A stretch of DNA of 64,000 nt, from IMG/VR virus record IMGVR_UViG_3300043570_000570, positions 32,001 to 96,000 of that record. One strand, written 5' to 3'. The notes beneath the pieces are model-generated. The model was not told where the DNA came from. It saw only the letters and a list, made by a program, of their open reading frames with translations, and ran no database searches. The translations under genes were made by a program, and so were the position numbers. The DNA comes from a virus. Positions 2,525-50,904 of this stretch are shown here, piece by piece (the stretch's first letter is position 1; each line of letters begins with the position of its first letter).

Positions 2525-3097
2525 TTAGCACTTCCAACGTTTACGTGCTTGACGTATTCTGCTGTTAGGATCATTCTGTGTAGCCTGTGAAGATCCACGT
2601 AGTTGTCCTAATGAACGAGCACAATAAGATTTTCTACGACCAGCTGCTTTGCTGCCTGCTTTAACCTTACCTGTTACTGCTGTGCTTAAGTTAGATCCAG
2701 GGTTTGCTCTACGATAAGCCATAACTCCTTTTTGAGTCATGCCTGCTCCTGACTTAGTAGGACGATAGTTTGCTCCTGGTCCTTTAGTAGTCTTTGCAAT
2801 AGTTCCTCCTTTAGCCATGTAAGCAGCTTTAAGTCTTCCTCCTGACATAAACTTGTATCCGTACTTAGAAGCATCTTGTCTAGCCTCAGATACGTTTCCT
2901 TTATTAGCTGCTACAAATCTTGCCTTAGCAACACTAGTAGGCATCTTACCGCCATCAGCCATTTCACGTTTAATCTTACGTTCTTGCTTAAGCATTTCTG
3001 GAGTAGGTTTCTTGCCTGAGCCTCTCTTTGCACGGATGTTATCCCACAATCCTCTTTGTGAGTAAGATCCATCTTTACGTTTTATCATCTGTTTCAT
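2525..3097 (-). CDS. Basic virion-associated protein with DUF6321-like C-terminus
   Basis: RRKSYCARS...DPNSRIRQARKRWKC C-terminus; three (M/F)xxGG motifs. Confidence 0.6.
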   Translation of the reverse strand: MKQMIKRKDGSYSQRGLWDNIRAKRGSGKKPTPEMLKQERKIKREMADGGKMPTSVAKARFVAANKGNVSEARQDASKYGYKFMSGGRLKAAYMAKGGTIAKTTKGPGANYRPTKSGAGMTQKGVMAYRRANPGSNLSTAVTGKVKAGSKAAGRRKSYCARSLGQLRGSSQATQNDPNSRIRQARKRWKC

Positions 3098-6717: not shown

Positions 6718-9700
6718 TTATGGATTGGTTTGTGTTATTTGTATGGTGTTGATAAACTTAAATCTAGAGTAAGCATCTTGTATAAGTCTTATCTTAGCAA
6801 AGTCTGATTTAATTTTATTCTTCTGATAAGATACAGACACAGGTCTTACACTTTTTGTATTTGGAACCTTATCAATTGGATACTGAGTTACTAGATCTCC
6901 CCATTGAGTTGACCAAAGTGGTTGTCCATTTCCTTGCGCTGCAACGTTCCAAAATCCATTAAAGGTATAAAGCTGTTCTCTGCGAGAGATAAGAGCTTCT
7001 ATGCCCGTTGCTGTCATTCTAGGATAGGTTATCTTTTGTCTAGTGTTACCGAACTCTTCAGGAATCAACTTAATAATACCAGAAGACTGTTCTTTGTTAT
7101 AAATAATCGCCTTAGTAAAGTTTGCTAAGTTCTTTTTGTTTGCGGTAGACAAAGAGTAGTACTCATAATCAGAGTAGTATTCTTGAATGTCTTGCATCAA
7201 AGTAACAGAGTTGACTGTAGATACTTGAGGGAATGAATTTACATTATACTCTAGTATGTAAGGATACAAAATTCCGTAGTAAGTCTGATAAGTATAAACA
7301 GACAAATTATGATTCCAAATACTTGAACCTGTTCCTGTATTAATGATAGTTTGAAAGTGACCTAACAAAGGAACAAAGAAGTTAGGAAGGAAAGAATAGA
7401 ATGAAATAAAGTTTTTAAGTTTAGGAGAGTAGGCTACTGTCCAAGACTTATTCTCAAAGTATGTTGGATTAGTTAACTGAACTTCTATTCTTAAGTTTAT
7501 TTCTTGGTAATAAAATTTACGATCCTCATAAGTTATAATACCCACTAGATCTTTACGTGCTAGATAATCTAGTTTAGTAATAAACACTCTTTCATATCTT
7601 TCATCCCATCCCATTACAATGCCTAATCCTGATTGTGGATTATCTATGTCTGCATCAGGAAAGTCCTTAAGGATATTAAAAGGTAAATTATTTTTAAACC
7701 AGTTAAAGTTATTCTCTGTTTTAATCTCGTTAAACCCTTCTCCTGTAATTTGATAAATGTGACCACGCTTAGCGTCTACCCAGAATGTTCCGAACTCGCA
7801 CTTAACATAAGCTTTGTGTTGAGTTCCTATGTAACCTAGATCTGTCTTAGAAAGTTCTACAGGTTTTTGTTTGAACATTTCTGCATTACCAATCTCTAAC
7901 TGATAAGGAGAGGTAGTGCTTAGGGTAATACGAGAGTTGTATACTTTAGTTGTATTTTCAAATCTAGCATATACTCTTTCGTTCTCTCCTGCATTCAAAT
8001 CTATTAAGCGACCTCCTTGTTTAGGAAAATCATAAAAATTACCAGGACGGAATACTCTCCAAGCATCTGAAAGATAGTTAGAAGCATTTGCAGGATCTGA
8101 ATAGATAACTCTGTTCTGATGGTAGGTAAGACACTCTAAAGAAGGATACTTTAATCTGTAAGGTAAGTTAGGACTTAAGTTCTGTGCAGAGTAAGTAGCA
8201 TTGTAGCTGTAGAAGTTGTCAAACTTAATAGGTACGTTTACTTCATGCAACCAATCATCAGGAATACCATCTCCTACGTTAGGGTAGAAGTTTTCTTCTA
8301 GATCATTTCTTCCATGACGTAAGTCTACGTTAATATCAGACTCTACATAAAATACAGGAATACCATAAGACGCTGTATAGAATACTCCCTTTTGATAAAA
8401 AAATCTATTAGGATCTGCATCTAAGTTATTTTTCTTTACGAACAAACTGTATATAGATGCCAGTGTTCCTGAGATAAATGCATTAAGTGTTACTCCACTA
8501 GTTGCTCCTCCAAATACTGCAGGAGACGCCAATAGTGTAGTTAACGCTGCTCCTACTCCTGTAGCAAGACTTGAAGCAATTCCCGCATTTATTTCTTCAG
8601 GAGACTCTCCTATATAATACGTAGGATATCCTAAGTTAGGATAAAGCCAATAATCAAAAGGAACATTATTTACTTTAGCAGGAAGGTTCGCTAAGTTACG
8701 AGTAAAGAAAGAATGTTTACGTTTAAGAGCAAACTTATTAATATAAGTATCTCCGCCAAATGCAGGATAATACTTCTTAAGAATCTTTGCTGTGCCATTT
8801 AAACTTGTAGTTACATCAACAATGTATCCTGTAGATACATATCTAATGTTTTCTATCTGTCCATACTGATTTGGAAACTCACGTTTAATAGAAGCATAGT
8901 AAGCTCTTGTATCGCTTTCTGTTACTTTTTCTGGAGTGTCTTCTAGATTATTTTCTCCTATTGTATAACGACTAGTATCTTGAATAAAAGGATACTCATA
9001 AGAAAAACCAGCACTTGTCTTAAGGTAAACTGAAGTCTCTCTTAGGCGATTATGTAAAGGTCTATCATCGTTTAATTCTACTATCTTATCATTAGCGTAT
9101 AATCCAATATCTAAGAAACGTCTTCTGTTACCCCTAGTAGTGATAGGTCTAAAACTTGTGTACTTACCTACTGAGTTAAACTGATAAGCAAAGTTTGTAT
9201 TAGGAATCAGTCTTTCTATTAAATCTATAAATATTTGATTGTTGGTTAGGATTGAAAGACCATCTGTTTTTAATTTAGTATTAGGATCAACTGCAGAAGC
9301 TGTAGTTTCAAAGGCTAAAGAAAGTGCATCTGCTAAAACAGCAGACAAACCGTAATCAGCTTTGGTTAAGAATTTATACTGAGGATGATCTAATACAGGC
9401 ATAAACTTTCCTTGCACTTTACCAAACTCTAATGTTTCTATTTTAAGTTCTGTTCCAATCTTAGGAAGTTGGAAGTGTGTGTCAGGTGAGTGAAATGTGT
9501 ATCTAGATCCAATAGTGTTAAATCCTTTGTGGGGACCCATTCCTGGGATGTTGTCATTCTTTTCTCCTCTGTCTGCTGCGTTGTACCAATCTGGACTAGA
9601 CTTAATATAACCATCTTCCCTGATATCATTGTAAGGATAGTTAGGATAGTAAAACTTCTTACCAGATTCAACATCTTCAAAAGTTCCTACATCATAAATA

Positions 9701-31567: not shown

Positions 31568-32014
31568 CTATTTTAAACTTTCAAACCCATTCTTAAACGA
31601 CTTCTCTAAAGCCTTAGAATAAGCTTTTCTGTTATGAGGAATACCTTCTACAGAAATAAACATAGCATTAACGTAAACTACTTTACTAGCTTCTCCTTGA
31701 AGAAGAATTCCATTTACGTTAATTTCTGTACTTACAATATATTCTCTTTTAAGAAACTGTAAGCCTACAATATTTACAAGTTGTTCAGGCATTGCAATGG
31801 ATTTGATTTTTCCTGAAATAGGACTGCCCTCATTACATAATTGGTACTTTGAAGAAGCAATCTCTTCTAGAGTAGTTTGTGCTCCAAAGATTATAGGTCT
31901 TCCTCCTATCTCTGTTACAGTTGCAATTGAAGTTACAGTGTCAATCTTGTAGCATTGAGCACTCAGAGAAGTCATCATAGTGACTAAAGCGGAAAGTATA
32001 AATAGTTTTTTCAT
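31568..32014 (-). CDS. Secreted protein (signal peptide)
   Basis: MKKLFILSALVTMMTSLSAQ; promoter-like CAAAAGTA 32039-32046. Confidence 0.6.
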   Translation of the reverse strand: MKKLFILSALVTMMTSLSAQCYKIDTVTSIATVTEIGGRPIIFGAQTTLEEIASSKYQLCNEGSPISGKIKSIAMPEQLVNIVGLQFLKREYIVSTEINVNGILLQGEASKVVYVNAMFISVEGIPHNRKAYSKALEKSFKNGFESLK

Positions 32015-35500: not shown

Positions 35501-35851
35501 TTATGAATTAGTTGTGTTTGATAGTGATTCTCCGTCTTCCTCATCGACCTTCTGTATTAACATCTTGTCTCTGTCTTCAGAGTTAAACCAATAGTCAACT
35601 ACTTTGTTTAAGTTACCTACAAAGGCACCCAAGAGAATAAGTAGCAATTCTTTCCAGTCTTCTCCAATAGAAGCTCCCATAAATACTGCTGCATTGATTC
35701 CAAGAATAATTAAAGTAAACAAACCTAACACAATAGCGGTAATTTTCCAACGATTGGCTTGCATTTGTTGTAGCATGTAGTAGAACCTGTTTTTAGGATC
35801 TACTGCTACTGGTTCTGCTTGGGTAAGACCAAGTGCTTTTTTTATGTTCAT
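35501..35851 (-). CDS. Two-TM membrane protein (holin-like)
   Basis: Two hydrophobic helices ending VVDYWFNS. Confidence 0.5.
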   Translation of the reverse strand: MNIKKALGLTQAEPVAVDPKNRFYYMLQQMQANRWKITAIVLGLFTLIILGINAAVFMGASIGEDWKELLLILLGAFVGNLNKVVDYWFNSEDRDKMLIQKVDEEDGESLSNTTNS

Positions 35852-37749
35852 TTTTGTACAATTATTTTAGAATGTAATACTTCTGTCTCAGTAGTTACAG
35901 AAAGAATATAAACGCCATCAGAGAGACGATCTAGGTTTGCACTATACTTGTACTTACCTGCGGGCATACGTTGTTTTAAAAGAGTCTCTATGCGTCTTCC
36001 TACCTCATCTGAGATAGCCATGTCTACGTTAGAGTCTTCTTTAATCTTGAATTGGACTTGGATGTTTCCTTCTGTAGGGTTAGGGAATACTATAATAGAG
36101 TTTAAGTCGTTAAGCGAAATAGTTCCTTTGTTGACTCTACGAACTTCAATGATTCCCATAGCAGGAGTAATGTTCATATCCTTAGAGTCTTTATCTCCTA
36201 CGTATTTAGCACCTGTCCACAAAGCTGCACTTGCCCAAGAGTCTTGGGGTTTTTTAGCAATGAACTGAACTTTAAAAGCTTGTTCTCCATCGTTAAGCAT
36301 GTTCTCGTTAGTTAAGTCAGCACCTCCCCAAGAAACCATTCCATTAGAAGGGTTCATGTAGGTAGTCCACTTCATCATCTTTTCAGAGTTCTCAATACCT
36401 TTAAACTCTAAGTAAGCTGTGTCGTACCTAAGATCTAACTGTAATGCACCTAAGTTCTTTCCGTTAGTCAAAACTTTAACAGGAACGTTAACTAGGTTTC
36501 CTTCTTCTACACTTACTTTAGGCATATTTACCTCAATAGTTTCTGCAGGGAAATCATAACTTACAGTTTCGTCAATAATGTAACGCTTTGCGTTAGCTTG
36601 ATTAGTAATTTTAATAGGAGTCAAACGAGCCATCTTAAATCCTGTAGCATTGGCGTCTCCCTTAACAGCTACGTAGTAAGTGATAGAATCATTACCATCT
36701 ACACTGTAAGTAAAGTTATTTATAGTAGAGTATGTGGAGGTCAAGTTAGATGTGGCGCCATTGATTGCATTGTATTCAGCAACTGTAAAGAACATTACGT
36801 CTTTTTTAGAGTTAGGCCATGCAGTAAATCTACCTGCCAATCTTCCGTAAACAGCGTATACGTCAGCAATAGAAATATCTCCAGTAGTTCCGTTTACATC
36901 CATTGTGTAGTAATCAAAGCCTGTAGGAGTGTATTGACCTAAGATAGATTGATTAATCTTCTGTGCATCTGCAGTAGAGAATACATTACCTGGGATCATT
37001 GTGTCTCCTTTAACTACAATGCGTACATCCCAATAAGTAGTATCTAGGAATTTCTTAAACACAGTAACACCCAATGAGTTAGTCTTTTGTGAAGCAATCT
37101 GAGACCAAGTTGAAGAACCTTTAGCTCTCTTCTCTAAACTAACAGTTAAGTTCTTAGCATCTGTACCAGTTACGTTTTTAAACTTAGTAGCAAAACGCAA
37201 TACTTTCTGATTGAAACGTCCACCGTAAGAGTAAACTACCAAAGTAGTATCGTTACCCCAGTTAGTAGCAGCTCTGTTAGAGAATGACTTAACACCTGAT
37301 ACTTTTAAAGTCTTGATAGAATCTAAACTATTCCATACAGTTTCACCTGCGTGAGTAAAAGTCAAATCAAATGTAGCTCCGTTAGAATAGTTAAAAGTAG
37401 AACTAGATCCTGTGTAAGCCAAAGTAACTGTCAAGAATCCTTGTAGGTTACTATCTACATACTGAAGGTATTGATCAGAAGCAGAAATCTTAAGAGAAGG
37501 CACAACTCCTGTAAAAGCAGTCTTATCATAGAATACACGGAATTGCATACCTGTAATCTTCTCTGAAGTAGAAGTATTGTAGAAATGCAGAGGAGCAACT
37601 GTTTGACCTACAGTAGTTGTTGCTACTTGATAGCCTGAGTCAATTACTACCCAGTGACCTGTACCTGGAGAGGTAGCAGAAGATTGTGCTGATGCATTGC
37701 CAACCAACAATGTGAGCACTCCGATGAGGACTTTGATTATTTTATTCAT
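35848..37749 (-). CDS. Cohesin/dockerin-like protein with T9SS type-A sorting tail
   Basis: Signal peptide; cohesin-like ITGMQFRVFYD and VNVPVKV...LGALQLDLRYD; dockerin-like MDVNGTTGDISIAD and KGDAN; CTD IIVFPNPTEG...LSDGVYILSV...KIIVQK. Confidence 0.8.
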   Translation of the reverse strand: MNKIIKVLIGVLTLLVGNASAQSSATSPGTGHWVVIDSGYQVATTTVGQTVAPLHFYNTSTSEKITGMQFRVFYDKTAFTGVVPSLKISASDQYLQYVDSNLQGFLTVTLAYTGSSSTFNYSNGATFDLTFTHAGETVWNSLDSIKTLKVSGVKSFSNRAATNWGNDTTLVVYSYGGRFNQKVLRFATKFKNVTGTDAKNLTVSLEKRAKGSSTWSQIASQKTNSLGVTVFKKFLDTTYWDVRIVVKGDTMIPGNVFSTADAQKINQSILGQYTPTGFDYYTMDVNGTTGDISIADVYAVYGRLAGRFTAWPNSKKDVMFFTVAEYNAINGATSNLTSTYSTINNFTYSVDGNDSITYYVAVKGDANATGFKMARLTPIKITNQANAKRYIIDETVSYDFPAETIEVNMPKVSVEEGNLVNVPVKVLTNGKNLGALQLDLRYDTAYLEFKGIENSEKMMKWTTYMNPSNGMVSWGGADLTNENMLNDGEQAFKVQFIAKKPQDSWASAALWTGAKYVGDKDSKDMNITPAMGIIEVRRVNKGTISLNDLNSIIVFPNPTEGNIQVQFKIKEDSNVDMAISDEVGRRIETLLKQRMPAGKYKYSANLDRLSDGVYILSVTTETEVLHSKIIVQK

Positions 37750-44828: not shown

Positions 44829-45266
44829 TTACTTATATACTTTAAAGGAAGCAGTTTTATTCTTATACCCCTCATAGTCCTTACGAAAAGATTCTAGTCT
44901 AGGTTCAATCTCATCTGACTTGATGATCCAGAACTGAGCACCTACAGCTTTTGCTTTTTCTATTTCTTGTTTATCATCAGAACTAGAAATAATCCCTATC
45001 ACCACTCCGTTGCCGTACTCAAAGTTAATCTTACGAATCAACTCTATGCCGTCAAAAGAAGAACCAATAATATTAAGGTCTACAAAAACGCATTCAGGTC
45101 TTTCATCTGCAGGTCCTTCAACAAACCATCTCTTAAACAATCTATCAGCTTCATCAGAAGAAGTTAGAGTTTGCAGAGAAAGAGTAATGTCTAATAAGCT
45201 ACAAGAATCCTCAAACACTAAGTGAAAAAGGTCTTCGTCATCTACGAGTAATATTGAGTCTATCAT
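44829..45266 (-). CDS. Single-domain response regulator (REC)
   Basis: ILLVDD, phosphoacceptor VFVDLN, DGIELIRKI, IISSS, WIIK. Confidence 0.9.
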   Translation of the reverse strand: MIDSILLVDDEDLFHLVFEDSCSLLDITLSLQTLTSSDEADRLFKRWFVEGPADERPECVFVDLNIIGSSFDGIELIRKINFEYGNGVVIGIISSSDDKQEIEKAKAVGAQFWIIKSDEIEPRLESFRKDYEGYKNKTASFKVYK

Positions 45267-45273
45267 ATTTTGT

Positions 45274-46476
45274 TTATTTTACTTTTATCTTAAGTTTAGT
45301 TCCTGTTTCTGGTTCTTCTAGTTTCTCAGCTGTTACTTCAAACTTATGTTCTTCCATAATAGCTGTACATATGTTTAACCCTAGTCCTGTACCTGCCTCT
45401 GTCTGACCTTCTTTCCTCTTATAAGGCTTAGACCACTGTACAAAATCTTCCTGAGACATTCCCCTTCCATTATCTTCAATAACTAAAAAATTCCCTTCAG
45501 CAAAAATACGTACTAACTTAGTGCTAGAGTCGTTATATTTTAAACCGTTTCTTATTAAATTATCAATCGCTGTACAGAACAAAGATTCGTTTACTTCAAT
45601 CTCAGGTAACTCTTCAATAACTACTTGCTTCTCGTAAGAAGTAGAAGATAGGTAGCTGTGTAGAATGTCTTTTAGATTGTGTTGCTGAACCTCTAAGTGA
45701 GCATCTTGCTTAACCAAGTTAGTAAACTCTTTAACTCCGTTATAAACCTTTTGAGTGTGAATCAATCCTTCTGTAATCATTCTTAGCGGAGCATCTATCT
45801 TTAACTCTTTAATCTGCTCTTCAGTCAGTCTTCTTTTTAAGGAAGAAAGTCCCCTAGGAATATAAGTGTTAATTCCTGAGTGCATATCATGTCTTAAAAT
45901 CTTAGCAGCATGTTCCAAATAGGAATTCTTTTTAGCAACCTCTGCCTCAATTCTCTTTTTCTCAGTAATCTCCGTAGCAATTAAAAGAATTTTATAAACC
46001 TCTCCGTAAGGATCTTTAATAGGATTGAAGTTTCCATAAAGCCAAGTATTGCCAAACTCATACTCTCCTTGCTTGAAATAGCCTATTCTTAAATGTGTCC
46101 AGAACTCTAACCAATCTCTCTTAGAAGAGTTGTCTAACTCCCTATGACTTTTAACCTCACCAAATATTCGCTTAAACCTGTCATTCATACTTAACACTTC
46201 TCCATAAGTATCAAACTCTACTAGTAAGTTAGAATTATTAATTGCTTTAAAAGTAGCATCTACACTCTGAAACTTATACCTAGCTCTCCTTACAAACTCT
46301 ATAGCAGGATAAAAGAAAAAAGGTAAAAACCCTACTATACACCAATACCCTACTAAATCCCGCTGGTAACTAGAATCTGTGTACTTGAAAACAATAGCAC
46401 TCTGAAAACTTAAATAAGCCAACATTATCACAGAAGCAATAACAACTGATACCTTAGACCTTATACTTAGTTTCAT
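45274..46476 (-). CDS. Membrane sensor histidine kinase with PAS-like domain
   Basis: Two N-terminal TM; PAS/PAC-like segment (VEFDTYGEV...NFNPIKDPYGEVYKIL..ATEITEKK); H-box LRHDM; N-box IDNLIRNGLKY; G1 EDNGRG; G2 GTGLGL. Confidence 0.9.
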   Translation of the reverse strand: MKLSIRSKVSVVIASVIMLAYLSFQSAIVFKYTDSSYQRDLVGYWCIVGFLPFFFYPAIEFVRRARYKFQSVDATFKAINNSNLLVEFDTYGEVLSMNDRFKRIFGEVKSHRELDNSSKRDWLEFWTHLRIGYFKQGEYEFGNTWLYGNFNPIKDPYGEVYKILLIATEITEKKRIEAEVAKKNSYLEHAAKILRHDMHSGINTYIPRGLSSLKRRLTEEQIKELKIDAPLRMITEGLIHTQKVYNGVKEFTNLVKQDAHLEVQQHNLKDILHSYLSSTSYEKQVVIEELPEIEVNESLFCTAIDNLIRNGLKYNDSSTKLVRIFAEGNFLVIEDNGRGMSQEDFVQWSKPYKRKEGQTEAGTGLGLNICTAIMEEHKFEVTAEKLEEPETGTKLKIKVK

Positions 46477-46499: not shown

Positions 46500-46528
46500 C
46501 AAATATAAGCTAACTTTAAATAAATCAA
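46500..46528 (-). promoter_or_regulatory. Promoter of the two-component operon
   Basis: CAAATATA 46500-46507, CAA 46526-46528. Confidence 0.55.
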
Positions 46529-46552
46529 AGTCTTGTCTCTGAAAACTTATCT

Positions 46553-46752
46553 CCCCAAAATTTTTAGACCCCCCATCCCAAAATTTCTCCCAAAATTTTT
46601 TCTAAAATTTTTAGACCCCTAAAATTTTTTATGTTCATAGGAGGGTGGGACCAAAATTTTATACCCCCGTCAACTTGATTATATCTATATGAGGGTGGGG
46701 GACACCAATTTAACATACCCCATCCCAAAATTGGCGCTAGGGGTACCCCCTA
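46553..46752. repeat. CCCAAAATTT / C- and G-run repeat tract at the strand switch
   Basis: Repeated (C)CAAAATTT units, AAAATTTTTAGACCCC twice, GAGGGTGGG twice, palindrome TAGGGGTACCCCCTA. Confidence 0.7.
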
Positions 46753-46772
46753 TAAAACGCTATAAAAAAAAT

Positions 46773-47096
46773 ATGAAAACAAATCTAGACTTCGATGGTA
46801 AGACAATCAATGAGATTGGCTTAGAAATGACAAATGTGTTTCGTACACAAGGTGCAACAAAGGCTCCAGGCTTCAACATTCTCACGGGTGAGAAAGATGA
46901 ACAAGGCAAAGAGCAAGTGGTGTTTGTTTGGTTGAGTAAGAATTTGAATGCTCAATGGGAAGATGAACGCTTTAAAACGGTTGCTGGCAACTCAGTGGTT
47001 CTTGAAGTAACCTTCAAGGAAACAGGGCATAAGGCACTTGTTTGTTGTACTCCTCAAATCCGCAACAAAATGGCGGATGCAGAAGTGTGGGATTAA
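46773..47096 (+). CDS. First plus-strand (early) gene, hypothetical
   Basis: Likely start MKTNLDFDG after an A-rich leader; followed by hairpin GTGTGGG/CCCACAC. Confidence 0.6.
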   Translation: MKTNLDFDGKTINEIGLEMTNVFRTQGATKAPGFNILTGEKDEQGKEQVVFVWLSKNLNAQWEDERFKTVAGNSVVLEVTFKETGHKALVCCTPQIRNKMADAEVWD

Positions 47097-47489
47097 CCCA
47101 CACTTTGTGGGACAAAGGGTAACTTAACTGTTTAACCTTGCCATTTTACTGTGCATTCTTCTCATTTATCTATGAAATGATAGTTTTTTTGGTCTCAGCC
47201 CGGTAAATAACGAGACAAGACTAAAGAATTCTATCATTTTATGGTATATATGTAGTGGTAAATAGTGGGGAATCACTCCCTTCAATCTTCTATTTATCAC
47301 TTAAAAGTGGGTAATTGTGGGGTTGACATGGTACGTTATGAATAATTTGTTGTTCTTATGTTAAATTAGACAACTATTAACCTCTATAACCTCATTACCC
47401 TGTCTTATGCTTTTCTCTTATCTTCTCTTACGTAGTAATCATCATTAGCCTGATGATTCCTTAACTGATTCTAAGCGAACTTTACGCTT

Positions 47490-47551
47490 GGTCGACTATG
47501 CGACCTTAAATAGCCTTTAGGCATAGTGCGTCACTATATGAGTGGGTATGG
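47490..47551 (+). ncRNA. Pistol self-cleaving ribozyme
   Basis: P1 GGUCG/CGACC; loop ACUAUG pairs with CAUAGU (pseudoknot); conserved UUAAAUAG and GCG; P3 UCACU/AGUGG; GU cleavage dinucleotide 47546-47547; P2 CCUU/AUGG has one mismatch. Confidence 0.8.
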
Positions 47552-47706
47552 AAACAATAATTAAAGAGTATTACTTAACTGAAGGAAGTAAGTTAGTAAA
47601 TTATAGCATAGGTACTAATGGTGTTGATTGTTGGTTTGATACTAATGATATTAGACAACACAGATGTTTATCTATTGAAGATTTTGAACTTATTAAGGGG
47701 GCTTAA
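47548..47706 (+). CDS. 52-aa early protein (not in track)
   Basis: METIIKEYYLTEGSKLVNYSIGTNGVDCWFDTNDIRQHRCLSIEDFELIKGA*. Confidence 0.55.
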   Translation: METIIKEYYLTEGSKLVNYSIGTNGVDCWFDTNDIRQHRCLSIEDFELIKGA

Positions 47707-47736
47707 TCGCCTCCTTTAAACTTTAATAAAAAGAAT

Positions 47737-47868
47737 ATGAAAACAATAGAACAAACAATTGATAGTTTAGAACAGCAAGTAAGAGATACATATCCTTCAT
47801 GGAATAATGAAATGATTAGGTCTAAGGCTGTTAGAATGTATTATTTAAATGAAGAGTTGGGAGCTTAG
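47737..47868 (+). CDS. 43-aa early protein (not in track)
   Basis: MKTIEQTIDSLEQQVRDTYPSWNNEMIRSKAVRMYYLNEELGA*; A-rich leader. Confidence 0.6.
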   Translation: MKTIEQTIDSLEQQVRDTYPSWNNEMIRSKAVRMYYLNEELGA

Positions 47869-47894
47869 TCTCCCTTTACTTTAACTAAACAAAT

Positions 47895-48044
47895 ATGAAA
47901 AACTATAGAGTCACCTACTATAATACAGAATATAGCATTAAGTCTATTTCTGTTATGGCTTTTACTCAAGAAGAAGCAAGAACTTATGTATATAGTCACA
48001 TAGAAGATTGTGTTCAAACACTCTCTGCTGAATATATATACTAA
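47895..48044 (+). CDS. 49-aa early protein (not in track)
   Basis: MKNYRVTYYNTEYSIKSISVMAFTQEEARTYVYSHIEDCVQTLSAEYIY*; A-rich leader. Confidence 0.6.
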   Translation: MKNYRVTYYNTEYSIKSISVMAFTQEEARTYVYSHIEDCVQTLSAEYIY

Positions 48045-48049
48045 ACATT

Positions 48050-48151
48050 ATCAAAGAGTAGTAACACTGCATGTAAACTGGTTATCCTTGATTACAGTAT
48101 GCAGACCTTTACATAGTAAATCAAGCTATGTTATGTATTGGACTCTTTGAT
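48050..48151 (+). ncRNA. Three-way-junction RNA with kissing loops (unassigned)
   Basis: AUCAAAGAGU/ACUCUUUGAU; CUGCAU..ACUG/CAGU.AUGCAG; ACAUAG/CUAUGU; loops CUUGAUU and AAUCAAG are complementary. Confidence 0.5.
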
Positions 48152-48296
48152 TACTTTAATGCATCATAACCTACTTCACAAGGGTAGGCAGTTGTAATAA
48201 CAGTATAGAGTCTGGAGAACCAAGCGTAAGCTGGACATAGGTAGTTCTCATGAAGCTGCGGAAGCTACTATTACAACTGAATGCAGAGTGAAGTAA
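48151..48296 (+). ncRNA. Twister self-cleaving ribozyme (P1 type, large P5 insert)
   Basis: P1 UUACUU/AAGUAA; U^AA site 48157/48158; P2 UGCA/UGCA; P4 CCUAC/GUAGG with loop UUCACAAGG; T1 CAC/GUG after conserved GA; P5 CAGUUGUAAUA/UAUUACAACUG; T2 non-canonical. Confidence 0.75.
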
Positions 48297-48393
48297 ACTA
48301 CAAGGTATGGTATATCCTACTAACACGTCTAGAGGACCTTGTAGTTCTTTTATACCTAAGGGTATTATACCAACTAGTATAAACTAAACAGAT

Positions 48394-48606
48394 ATGAAGA
48401 AATTTATAATATTCTCTACGTTAAGTCAAGCAAAGAATTACATTAAGCGTAATCTTCCCACCTATAACCATGATGATGGATGTGGGTGTTGCTATAGTTA
48501 TTCTTATCCTTTAATACAGGGTAAGCGTATTGTCTATGTTAATAGTTATTCTAACATGGGTAATCCAACTACTGAAGTAACTGTCATTGGCAGATACAAA
48601 AGATAA
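48394..48606 (+). CDS. Hypothetical early protein
   Basis: 70 aa, HDDGCGCC. Confidence 0.55.
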   Translation: MKKFIIFSTLSQAKNYIKRNLPTYNHDDGCGCCYSYSYPLIQGKRIVYVNSYSNMGNPTTEVTVIGRYKR

Positions 48607-48763
48607 ACACTCTACTGGCTATAGAGTGTATAAAATGTCGTGATTGGCCACACGTCAAGGCAAATGAAGATGTCTTTGAAACACAAAGATGTTTCTAAAG
48701 GGGATTAGTGAACTAATGATCTAATCCCTCATCTTTTTTAACTAATTAACTAATTAAAAAAAT

Positions 48764-48991
48764 ATGAAACTACTTATACATTTTGGGAAGTCACTGTTGA
48801 TGATAGTGATCCCTATTGCTTTTGCTGTTGTGTCTTCTATTATTATAAGCGCAATGTTCGCCTGTGTTTCTGTTCTTATGGGACATAACACTTTCTTTAA
48901 CTCTTTTCAAGCATTAATAGCCAATGTCACCTTTGTGATGTCTATTATTACCTTGATTATGTGGCTTATCTATCAATCTAATGAACTTTAA
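48764..48991 (+). CDS. Small two-TM membrane protein
   Basis: Hydrophobic ORF with A-rich leader. Confidence 0.55.
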   Translation: MKLLIHFGKSLLMIVIPIAFAVVSSIIISAMFACVSVLMGHNTFFNSFQALIANVTFVMSIITLIMWLIYQSNEL

Positions 48992-49004
48992 ACCAAACAA
49001 AAAT

Positions 49005-49208
49005 ATGAAAATTAAACCGTCCACATTCTTACTTGTCATCGCTGTATGTGCAGGTATGGTATTTATCATGGCTCTTCCTGATGTTATTAGTAGCATGGGA
49101 ACACAAGCCTTTACTTATGTGTTTACTACAGAAGTTTTAACTTTATGTTTACTTACAGTAGTAGGACACTTTTATCTTAAGTCTCTTAAAGAAGAAGGTA
49201 ATGATTAA
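49005..49208 (+). CDS. Small two-TM membrane protein
   Basis: Likely start MKIKPSTF. Confidence 0.55.
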   Translation: MKIKPSTFLLVIAVCAGMVFIMALPDVISSMGTQAFTYVFTTEVLTLCLLTVVGHFYLKSLKEEGND

Positions 49209-49341
49209 TCAACAAGTACTAAGCGTTATGAAGCCTAGAATCCCTTCAGGTAAAATCCTTGCAAGAGGATATGACAAAGAAGGTAGATTAATTATGGTAA
49301 GACTTAATAGTGCTGGCTTTAAAGGCTGGCACTTTCTCTAA
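49201..49341 (+). CDS. 46-aa hypothetical protein (not in track)
   Basis: MINQQVLSVMKPRIPSGKILARGYDKEGRLIMVRLNSAGFKGWHFL*. Confidence 0.45.
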   Translation: MINQQVLSVMKPRIPSGKILARGYDKEGRLIMVRLNSAGFKGWHFL

Positions 49342-49351
49342 AACTAAAACT

Positions 49352-49549
49352 ATGAACTACGATTCAATTCAAGATGAGCTTACAGAACTCTATCAAGAGT
49401 TAAATGCTGCAGAAAATGACTTACATATTTCTTGTAAGTCATCTCTTTTATTAGATTCAGGAGAAGAAAACTGGGTACGAGATCAACAACGTTTAATTGC
49501 TGCTCTGCGTGCTAAAATTCAATCTTTAACTATTTTAATATCAAAGTAA
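49352..49549 (+). CDS. Coiled-coil hypothetical protein
   Basis: Likely start MNYDSIQDEL. Confidence 0.55.
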   Translation: MNYDSIQDELTELYQELNAAENDLHISCKSSLLLDSGEENWVRDQQRLIAALRAKIQSLTILISK

Positions 49550-49644
49550 TGGAAAAACAATTATTTATCATTGACGGCTACAGAATCTGGGCTTTGACCT
49601 ATGAAGATGCTTATGCTAACTACTTAGTAATTTCAAGACTATGA
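49549..49644 (+). CDS. 31-aa hypothetical protein
   Basis: MEKQLFIIDGYRIWALTYEDAYANYLVISRL*; TAATG and ATGA coupling. Confidence 0.5.
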   Translation: MEKQLFIIDGYRIWALTYEDAYANYLVISRL

Positions 49645-49817
49645 AACCAGAAAATCCTTTTAGCGAAAGTACGGCCTTCAAAGCCCTTGTATGGTTCTCT
49701 TTAATAACTGTAATTTGCATTTGTTTAGAGAGTTGTGCAACTTCTAAAAATGTACCACATGGTTGTGGTAAAAAATCTAAGCGTTACTATCACGGAGAAT
49801 TCCTAGAATATAGATAA
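49641..49817 (+). CDS. Small lipoprotein
   Basis: MKPENPF...LITVICICLESCATSK, lipobox LESC. Confidence 0.5.
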   Translation: MKPENPFSESTAFKALVWFSLITVICICLESCATSKNVPHGCGKKSKRYYHGEFLEYR

Positions 49818-49824
49818 CCTTAAT

Positions 49825-49896
49825 GTCCCTTTCGTCTATTGGTAGGACAGCAGGATTTCATCCTGTTAAAGGTGTGTTCGATTCACCCAGGGGATA
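49825..49896 (+). tRNA. tRNA-Glu (anticodon TTC)
   Basis: Acceptor GTCCCTT/AGGGGAT, D-arm, anticodon arm GCAGG-ATTTCAT-CCTGT, T-loop TTCGATT; one T-stem mismatch; CCA not encoded (CTA). Confidence 0.8.
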
Positions 49897-49911
49897 CTAA
49901 ACTAACTAACT

Positions 49912-50226
49912 ATGAAAAAACTGTTCTTAATCTTAATCGTATGTGGCTTCAGTAATCTGAAAGCCCAACTATTCCCTATTAAAAGTCTAGAAGGTATGAT
50001 GCCTCTTACTTTATCCGATACAATGTTTGTAGAGGATCTAATAGGCGAAGGAAAACATCCTTCACCTAAAGTTTTAAATTGCTTTGTCTTTAAATTCTCT
50101 GAATGGAACTACGTTATAACATATAAGCTAACAGATCGTGATCAGCTATATATTATTAAGGATGGTTACATAGGAGATATTTACATATTCAAGGATAACA
50201 AAGTAGAAATACTTAGAGAAGATTAA
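49912..50226 (+). CDS. Secreted hypothetical protein
   Basis: Signal peptide MKKLFLILIVCGFSNLKAQ. Confidence 0.55.
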   Translation: MKKLFLILIVCGFSNLKAQLFPIKSLEGMMPLTLSDTMFVEDLIGEGKHPSPKVLNCFVFKFSEWNYVITYKLTDRDQLYIIKDGYIGDIYIFKDNKVEILRED

Positions 50227-50280
50227 ATTAGATTAAACATTAAACAAACAAACTAAAAACAAAAAACTAAAAACAAAATT

Positions 50281-50904
50281 ATGACTTACGAAGATTTCAA
50301 ATCAACAAACCTTGCTTTTGCTAGTAAAGCCTTCCGCAACTCTGGTATCAAAGCACCAATTACTGTTATGTTCGAGTGTTATACTCCTGCTAACCTATCT
50401 GTTCACCAACGTATGATTAGCCGTGGTCTTGGTGGTAATTTAACCAACCGTATGACTGCTCTATTAAACTTCACAGAAGAAAACTTCAACAGCGACTTTG
50501 GTCAGTTTGGAATTAACGCTGATGATGTAACTGGTGATTATTCAACAGCTATTCCTGTTAACGTAAACACTTCTCAGTTGTATGGTGAAGACTTAATCCT
50601 TCGCAGGGTAGATACTACTGATTCTGCTATTGTAAGCAATCCTGATGGTTCTATTAAGCCTCAGTGGTCTATTAAGACTGTTAATGGTCAAGAATTGACT
50701 TTTGAAGGTGCTCTTATCTACACTACTGTAGAGTTTGCTGAGCCAGGTATGTCTAACGCTACTATTAAGCAAGATCAAAACTTGTCTCGTAGTATTACTA
50801 ATATGTCTAGTGGTGCTTCTATTGGTGCTCTTAAGGAAAATAAGGCTCCTAAAGCAAAAGTAACAGAAGAAGTACTTGCTGATAATACACAAGCAGCATT
50901 CTAA
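50281..50904 (+). CDS. Highly expressed hypothetical protein (possibly ssDNA-binding)
   Basis: Strong codon bias, long A-rich leader, flexible tail ending in F; function is a guess. Confidence 0.45.
   Translation: MTYEDFKSTNLAFASKAFRNSGIKAPITVMFECYTPANLSVHQRMISRGLGGNLTNRMTALLNFTEENFNSDFGQFGINADDVTGDYSTAIPVNVNTSQLYGEDLILRRVDTTDSAIVSNPDGSIKPQWSIKTVNGQELTFEGALIYTTVEFAEPGMSNATIKQDQNLSRSITNMSSGASIGALKENKAPKAKVTEEVLADNTQAAF

Follow-up and report, generated by a model that had tools for sequence, protein, structure and literature searches.

The biological role of pistol ribozymes, like that of most self-cleaving ribozymes of bacteria and phages, is undefined (2019 review, PMC6765202). A viral DNA sequence with a predicted pistol whose last helix strand coincides with the start codon of a 52-codon frame raises the question of what such a ribozyme does for the gene behind it. 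Three points are addressed here: whether the ribozyme and the start codon are genuine, whether their fusion is maintained by selection, and from which RNA the gene would be translated. The window is a 64,000-nt stretch of IMG/VR record IMGVR_UViG_3300043570_000570 (positions 32,001–96,000), and coordinates are those of the window. Loci used for comparison carry L numbers.

The Rfam Pistol model RF02679 matches positions 47490–47551 on the forward strand over its full length (model positions 1–68), and the score of 47.8 bits exceeds the gathering score of 34.5. This copy is the only Rfam pistol in the 116-kb source virus record, which IMG/VR rates as 98% complete. P1, the pseudoknot, P2, P3 and the GU junction were all located (Table 1), and the pistol proposed here by the initial annotation is thereby borne out. 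All six pseudoknot pairs (47495–47500 with 47522–47527) are Watson-Crick when read from the sequence. G47528 occupies the place of the guanine that we take to be catalytic, as in the env25 structures. Every structural feature examined was found, and by these measures the element is a member of the pistol class for which cleavage is predicted.

Pistol cleavage leaves a 2′,3′-cyclic phosphate on the upstream product and a 5′-OH on the downstream product. It falls within a 2-nt junction, usually GU, of strictly conserved length (Harris 2015, PMC4604425). By this rule and the Rfam position, the 3′ product of the predicted cut starts 5′-OH-U-AUG and has a 1-nt leader. The AUGG directly after the GU had been read both as the P2 3′ strand and as the AUG of the 52-aa ORF; the Rfam alignment and the reading frame agree on this (A47548–G47551).

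Table 1. Positions of the ribozyme, its leader and the gene behind it in the window.
Feature	Position	Strand	Description	Basis
Long non-coding region	47097–47436	+	GTGG-type repeats and pyrimidine-rich blocks; lies between a 135-aa ORF (46689–47096) and the hairpins and pistol	No ORF
Hairpin 1	47437–47458	+	8-bp stem AAUCAUCA/UGAUGAUU	Read from sequence; in predicted consensus fold
Hairpin 2	47473–47489	+	AAGCG/CGCUU; abuts P1 directly	Conserved in window, L128, L131, L185, L197, L199
P1 hairpin	47490–47505	+	5-bp stem 47490–94/47501–05; loop 47495–47500 is the pseudoknot 5′ strand	Rfam alignment
Linker	47506–47513	+	UUAAAUAG, conserved; G47513 opposite A47552	G opposite A in most pistols too
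P2 5′ strand	47514–47517	+	CCU, possibly also U47517; CAU, CCAU or UCAU in relatives	Pairs with 47548–47551
Core junction	47517–47530	+	UUAGG, pseudoknot 3′ strand 47522–27, then GCG	Rfam alignment
P3 hairpin	47531–47545	+	5 bp (47531–35/47541–45), loop AUAUG	Rfam alignment, alignment A2
GU junction	47546–47547	+	Predicted cut between G47546 and U47547	Rfam model position and PMC4604425 rule
P2 3′ strand	47548–47551	+	AUG start codon and first base of codon 2	Sequence, Rfam, protein alignment
52-aa ORF (P0001)	47548–47706	+	Small conserved phage protein; invariant G-V-D-C-W-F and H-R-C	60 homologous clusters, alignment A1
Terminal hairpin	47697–47714	+	Stop codon in loop, then UUU	Read from sequence

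The P2 of the window is weak and imperfect. C47514–G47551, C47515–G47550 and U47516–A47548 pair and U47549 is bulged; an equivalent register that uses U47517 has a U-U mismatch, and only two of four pairs form in the Rfam register. The U-U mismatch had been proposed to keep the AUG intact. This fails, since it is the non-coding 5′ strand that carries the mismatch, and in relatives AUGG or AUG is paired perfectly. The 5′ strand is CCU in the window and in most copies, CAU in L129, CCAU in L130 and L185, and UCAU in L194. P2 is perfect in the last four, as CAU/AUG, CCAU/AUGG and UCAU/AUGA, respectively. Because CCAU and CAU pair perfectly, the AUG does not force a mismatch.

A weak P2 could also mean that the element is an inactive relic, a decayed pistol with a P2 too weak for catalysis, and that the ORF is read from an RNA beginning within the element or immediately behind it. 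The window P2 has only 2–3 pairs, and 47.8 bits lies at the low end of the fused copies tested (44–70 bits), all of which score above the Rfam cut-off. Nine pistol copies (7 distinct relatives) were compared in alignment A2. Base pairs are formed in 98.4% of its cells, and 14 of 19 pairs are changed on both sides; none of 500 shuffles equals it. Both-side changes affect three of the five P1 pairs, with every P1 cell paired, and five of the six pseudoknot pairs. Because pairing and both-side changes exceed those of all 500 shuffles, this covariation argues for selection on the pistol fold. Compensatory changes occur among relatives in P1, the pseudoknot, P2 and P3, the conserved core nucleotides are all present in the window, and P2 has kept its CCU/AUGG form across many diverged loci and in two separate lineages of pistols. 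Against these observations decay is very improbable.

The ATG at 47548 opens a 52-codon frame with its stop at 47704–47706. Homologous proteins form 60 clusters in public metagenomes, most of them 50–54 aa long, with a nearly invariant Met1 and conserved residues 4–10. Since Met1 is nearly invariant in these clusters, the AUG at 47548 is the true start. Conservation of the AUG had been named as a check on the fusion; every homologue starts at AUG and none lacks an ORF there. The protein has no family in Pfam, PHROGs or the ESM Atlas. Among ribozyme-carrying copies of the gene, dN/dS is mostly 0.06–0.3, which is purifying selection and suggests, indirectly, that the 52-aa protein is made in the pistol-fused context. 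The ORF has no A-rich leader, and the next two ORFs do, as the initial annotation had noted. A G-C hairpin similar to the one at its stop codon, followed by U-rich sequence, is found at the next ORF (47859–47874) and also after homologues in L002 and L132.

The fusion is also visible in protein records. The ENA proteins P0013 and P0015 are extended at the N-terminus by 27 residues, which match an in-frame translated pistol ending in V-G-M (GUG GGU AUG). From this extension match, both appear to derive from fused pistols. Gene callers appear to translate some fused pistols as false N-terminal extensions, and this type of artefact could help to find further copies.

Among the proteins of the window is a crAss-type major capsid protein (PF23898, E = 3.4e-27). 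A 633-aa protein at 35848–37749 on the reverse strand contains a cohesin domain and a type IX secretion C-terminal sorting domain. Together, the capsid protein and the sorting domain suggest that the phage is a freshwater crAss-like one that infects a Bacteroidota bacterium. One contig binned with a Chitinophagaceae MAG carries an almost identical fused pistol, which would weakly support such a host. No blastn match to deposited phages was found for 46500–50500. Leaders of the phage are A-rich and have no Shine-Dalgarno motifs. Small ORFs, a tRNA-Glu and a helicase make up a plus-strand block, and the pistol lies about 860 nt into it. No phage RNA kinase, RtcB or RNA ligase was detectable among the encoded proteins; a weak AAA_33 match was rejected as an RNA kinase or repair protein, as the protein is a Sak4-like annealing protein.

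Several other features of this region and its relatives were recorded. The tRNA-Glu (anticodon UUC) is at 49825–49897, within the small-ORF block, and relatives hold one to several tRNAs there. On the reverse strand, 45274–46476 encodes a 400-aa protein with a histidine-kinase ATPase domain (HATPase_c, E = 1e-12), and the adjacent 145-aa ORF (44829–45266) has, by eye only, the look of a response-regulator receiver; the two may form a phage two-component pair. A structured non-coding RNA at 48146–48296 lies in a 350-nt gap after the third small ORF (MFE −41.4 kcal/mol, z = −2.45, 11-bp long-range stem). It was rejected as a twister: no Rfam twister was found at E up to 10, and only its 3′ flank is common with an element of L002, the core being absent. 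That element (L002 3167–3225, on the contig of L121) is twister-P1-like (52.1 bits, E = 1.4e-9, below the gathering score of 67.2). A homologue of the 52-aa gene that has no pistol immediately precedes it, and a tRNA follows 660 nt later. A freshwater-1 RNA (RF02979, 84.4 bits) is found at 8602–8663 of L185, a syntenic relative. Two DUF805b RNA motifs (1324–1358 and 3029–3063) are found in L322, a Dependentiae-binned contig that also holds a fused pistol.

The non-coding stretch before the window pistol is 393 nt long, and those of relatives are similar (363–393 nt). Both hairpins upstream of P1 covary when the predicted consensus fold is compared with relatives. A hairpin stands at the position of hairpin 1 in L131, L185, L197 and L199, with entirely different stem sequences, and G-C to G-U and A-U changes occur among the loci that conserve hairpin 2. 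No Bacteroidetes −7 box (TAnnTTTG) was found upstream of the window pistol, and a sigma-70 scan there gave sites no more numerous than in shuffles. Besides GTGG-type repeats, the non-coding region of L131, L185, L197 and L199 holds repeated ATTGTCA palindromes around a TTTGTTTAACTTTT box and, by this pattern, looks like a promoter/operator region. A conserved GTGG-rich leader ending in ccattatatggctaa is common to L137 (about 620–723), L129, L189, L191 and L203. In L137 about 20 nt of plain leader connect it to the AUG, whereas in the other four a fused pistol makes the connection. L137 and these four loci are a natural pair without and with the ribozyme.

A set of 64 loci encoding relatives of the 52-aa protein was collected, and the 100 nt upstream of each were read. 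In seven of the closest loci (L128, L129, L130, L131, L132, L133 and L136; 81–98% protein identity), a pistol ending in GGU stands immediately before AUGG. L139 (74%) has a canonical pistol with a GUGA/UCAC P2, followed by a 14-nt A-rich leader; on sequence, this is a plausible precursor state. Like the seven fused copies, the pistol of L139 exceeds the Rfam threshold. L121, L134, L135, L137 and all more distant homologues have ordinary A-rich leaders and no ribozyme. The fused arrangement is optional, since close homologues of the gene do without it.

Other genes carry the same junction. IMG/VR was scanned with a pattern of fixed pistol core and GGUAUG only, with the P2 5′ strand left free. 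True fused pistols were found before about eight further ORF families, which begin MEKIKDLS (50 aa), MDIYYDNQ (77 aa), METIKETL (124 aa), MKNTTMK (150 aa), MNNNSIS (125 aa), METITDME (111 aa), MDKITLIA (52 aa) and MENTFYT (112 aa). Two further families came from prokaryote assemblies scanned in addition, giving about 10 families besides the 52-aa gene and about eleven in all. Each true hit has a P2 5′ strand that complements the AUG and the next base, with UCAU facing AUGA and CCAU facing AUGG. Candidates at L188/L042/L075, L195, L314, L316–L318, L320 and L321 were rejected as pistols because they lack P3 or the pseudoknot. In L198 and L201 the AUG lies within P2 and the ORF has only 9–12 codons, and these were not counted as start codons. 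L034 and L018 have ORFs starting AUG-GAA-ACA after a leadered pistol; they were rejected as homologues, their proteins being unrelated. Given its recurrence in seven homologous loci and about 10 other families, the GU|AUG junction is found far more often than expected by chance.

Ribozyme and gene have been exchanged separately. Several contigs with fused pistols are syntenic with the window and have homologues of six downstream genes in common, and the first ORF after the pistol differs. Compared with L129, the window is 98.7% identical in the ORF, 72.9% in the pistol and unrelated in the upstream 200 nt (about 49%). Compared with L185, the ORF is unrelated (53%), the pistol is 93.3% identical and the upstream 200 nt are 58.2% identical. 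Identity breaks exactly at the junction in both pairs. This pattern indicates that ribozyme modules and genes have been shuffled with the one-nucleotide spacing retained each time.

Such breakpoints fit recombination, and the fusion might have no translational role. The pistol could sever or stabilize the upstream leader RNA or punctuate a polycistronic transcript, roles that have been suggested for phage ribozymes generally, with exact fusion to the AUG arising as a by-product of genome compaction and recombination at the microhomology GGUAUGGAAA. Most pistols are just upstream of the next gene, and many small ORFs in these phages start AUG-GAA-A with or without a pistol. In L132 and L133 a pistol stands on either side of the 52-aa ORF. 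The second, leadered pistol (L132 1670–1730, 62.5 bits; L133 903–963, 60.8 bits) begins 11 nt past the stop codon of this ORF, and the small ORF that follows has its AUG 18 nt after the second cut site. The bracketed gene could be released as a single-gene RNA.

Compaction predicts a continuum of short spacings. Two scans of viral contigs with generic patterns supplied 132 other distinct pistols, for which spacing was measured from the cleavage site to the first ATG-ORF of at least 40 codons. The next ORF starts at +1 in three cases, at +2 to +15 in none, at +16 to +20 in three and at +21 to +30 in 29; the rest start further downstream. Laxer ORF rules added only a few cases to the +2 to +15 gap. 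The +1 class makes up about 2% of the 132 pistols. By this measure, the leader behind an ordinary pistol has just the length that a normal initiation region needs, and a small class of pistols leaves essentially none. Bimodal spacing is expected from two distinct initiation modes and not from compaction alone. In addition, the P2 5′ strand varies in step with the fourth base (C opposite G, U opposite A), and a gene placed by compaction must still be translated from leader-free RNA, so that a translational consequence is unavoidable. A processing or compaction role alone is distinctly unlikely. These comparative data show that the junction is under selection: it is kept before different genes, its P2 5′ strand adapts, and intermediate spacings are missing.

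The conserved layout leaves no space for an ordinary ribosome-binding region, and the gene must therefore be expressed either from the cut RNA or in competition with cutting. It is considered somewhat probable that the ribozyme strips off a long structured leader and thereby frees a near-leaderless 5′-OH mRNA, which would be the translated form; the translation step is the part reached by inference. The pistol would act at the 3′ end of an approximately 390-nt structured non-coding leader that heads the block of small-ORF and replication genes. Once transcribed, AUGG would close P2 and the RNA would cut itself between G47546 and U47547. The whole ribozyme and the leader, including both hairpins, would stay on the upstream fragment and be discarded. 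The short P2 of 3–4 bp would then melt to give an mRNA starting 5′-OH-U-AUG, with one U as the shortest leader that a pistol can leave, and the 52-aa protein would be translated from this near-leaderless RNA. For four 3′ products, the first ~25 nt are predicted to be unpaired. Such a ribozyme would serve as a portable cassette that defines the 5′ end of any gene starting AUG-G or AUG-A. Both cleavage in vivo and translation of the cut RNA are presumed in this scheme.

Published work bears on these steps. The kobs of pistols is estimated at >10 per min under physiological Mg and pH (PMC4604425), and little uncut RNA should therefore persist. Translation initiation in Bacteroidota does without Shine-Dalgarno pairing and responds to structure close to the start codon, and unstructured A-rich leaders matter (PMC6847099). 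Leaderless transcripts account for 5.5% of mapped Flavobacterium psychrophilum mRNAs (PMC9723704). In Escherichia coli, leaderless translation reportedly requires a 5′ phosphate, a 5′-OH being unfavourable (Giliberti 2012, as cited in PMC9031893), and added 5′ nucleotides lower it (Krishnan 2010, as cited in PMC9031893). The predicted pistol product has a 5′-OH by class chemistry and thus lacks the phosphate of the E. coli rule, a requirement known only for E. coli. A pistol set before a tRNA did not cut in vitro (PMC9521606), so context can matter for pistol cutting. Counted against the leaderless reading are the 5′-OH product, the lack of a detectable phage kinase, RtcB or ligase, the weak P2 of the window, the ribozyme-free homologues and this context effect.

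Some of the same facts would suit an off-switch or timer. The ribozyme would be active, the cut 5′-OH-U-AUG RNA would be translated poorly or not at all, and protein would come only from the few transcripts that a ribosome or another factor engages before P2 closes, with translation and self-cleavage competing for four overlapping nucleotides. The unfavourable effect of a 5′-OH on leaderless initiation in E. coli, as described in PMC9031893, agrees with this, as does the failure to find a phage RNA kinase, and the weak, bulged P2 of most copies could slow folding and open a window for ribosomes. Fast cleavage, however, leaves scant uncut RNA, and in that RNA the AUG lacks a free leader and has a compact pseudoknotted fold directly before it, unfavourable conditions for initiation without Shine-Dalgarno pairing in Bacteroidota (PMC6847099). 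Purifying selection and retention of the junction before about 11 gene families are also hard to reconcile with a ribozyme that destroys expression. An off-switch is held to be unlikely, and translation of the cut RNA is the preferred reading. The initial annotation's interpretation, in which self-cleavage could be coupled to translation, is supported in part and gains considerable strength from the comparative data. More broadly, and as a tentative proposal, this crAss-like phage lineage may use pistols as exchangeable leaderless-mRNA cassettes, in which the cut both unmasks the AUG and makes a 5′-OH end for ribosomes that work independently of Shine-Dalgarno pairing.

The element resembles the described pistol class (RF02679; Weinberg 2015; Harris 2015, PMC4604425) in P1, the 6-bp pseudoknot, P2, P3, the GU junction, the core and its association with phages. 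In described pistols P2 is ordinary non-coding RNA, whereas here its 3′ strand is a start codon, conserved across many genes. A full-text search of self-cleaving and pistol ribozymes against leaderless mRNAs, start codons and crAss phages found no published description of a pistol P2 that doubles as a start codon. What is new is a functional variant of a known ribozyme class with a P2 strand as start codon.

Synthetic 5′ ribozyme cassettes also pair with the first bases of their payload, cut themselves off and leave a 5′-OH end (hammerhead insulators; Giliberti 2012, as cited in PMC9031893; a pistol in PMC9521606). Those cassettes are engineered, whereas the pistol junction is natural and evolutionarily maintained. 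The ribozyme-made 5′-OH leaderless product of Giliberti 2012 was translated poorly in E. coli, according to PMC9031893. Hammerheads in the 5′ UTRs of fungal and plant RNA viruses (PMC13725137) are needed for translation and are likewise viral ribozymes placed closely in front of an ORF, in one case 7 nt from the start codon, with cleavage tied to translation initiation; they differ in having eukaryotic hosts, cap-independent initiation, another ribozyme class and RNA genomes. HDV-like ribozymes of R2 and L1Tc (Ruminski 2011, as reviewed in PMC6765202) also cut the 5′ end of a coding RNA from a longer transcript and have a link to translation. In that account the HDV-like ribozyme remains on the downstream RNA and is thought to be IRES-like, whereas the pistol would remain upstream and leave a bare AUG. 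The glmS ribozyme is likewise a bacterial 5′-UTR ribozyme whose cut leaves a 5′-OH on the coding RNA. Cleavage of glmS depends on a metabolite and marks the mRNA for decay. The pistol, in contrast, has no ligand pocket, and any expression of its gene would have to come from the cut RNA.

The arrangement makes the loosely framed idea of ribozymes as processors of phage transcripts open to a precise and inexpensive experiment, and it gives a direct experimental handle on the role of pistols. It also allows the 5′-phosphate rule for leaderless translation in E. coli to be tested in Bacteroidota. If confirmed, the fused pistol would be a compact natural part for expression in hosts that lack Shine-Dalgarno initiation. 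If these phages do use pistols as leaderless-mRNA cassettes, this would be the first biological function assigned to pistol ribozymes, and it would mean that Bacteroidota translate 5′-OH leaderless mRNAs.
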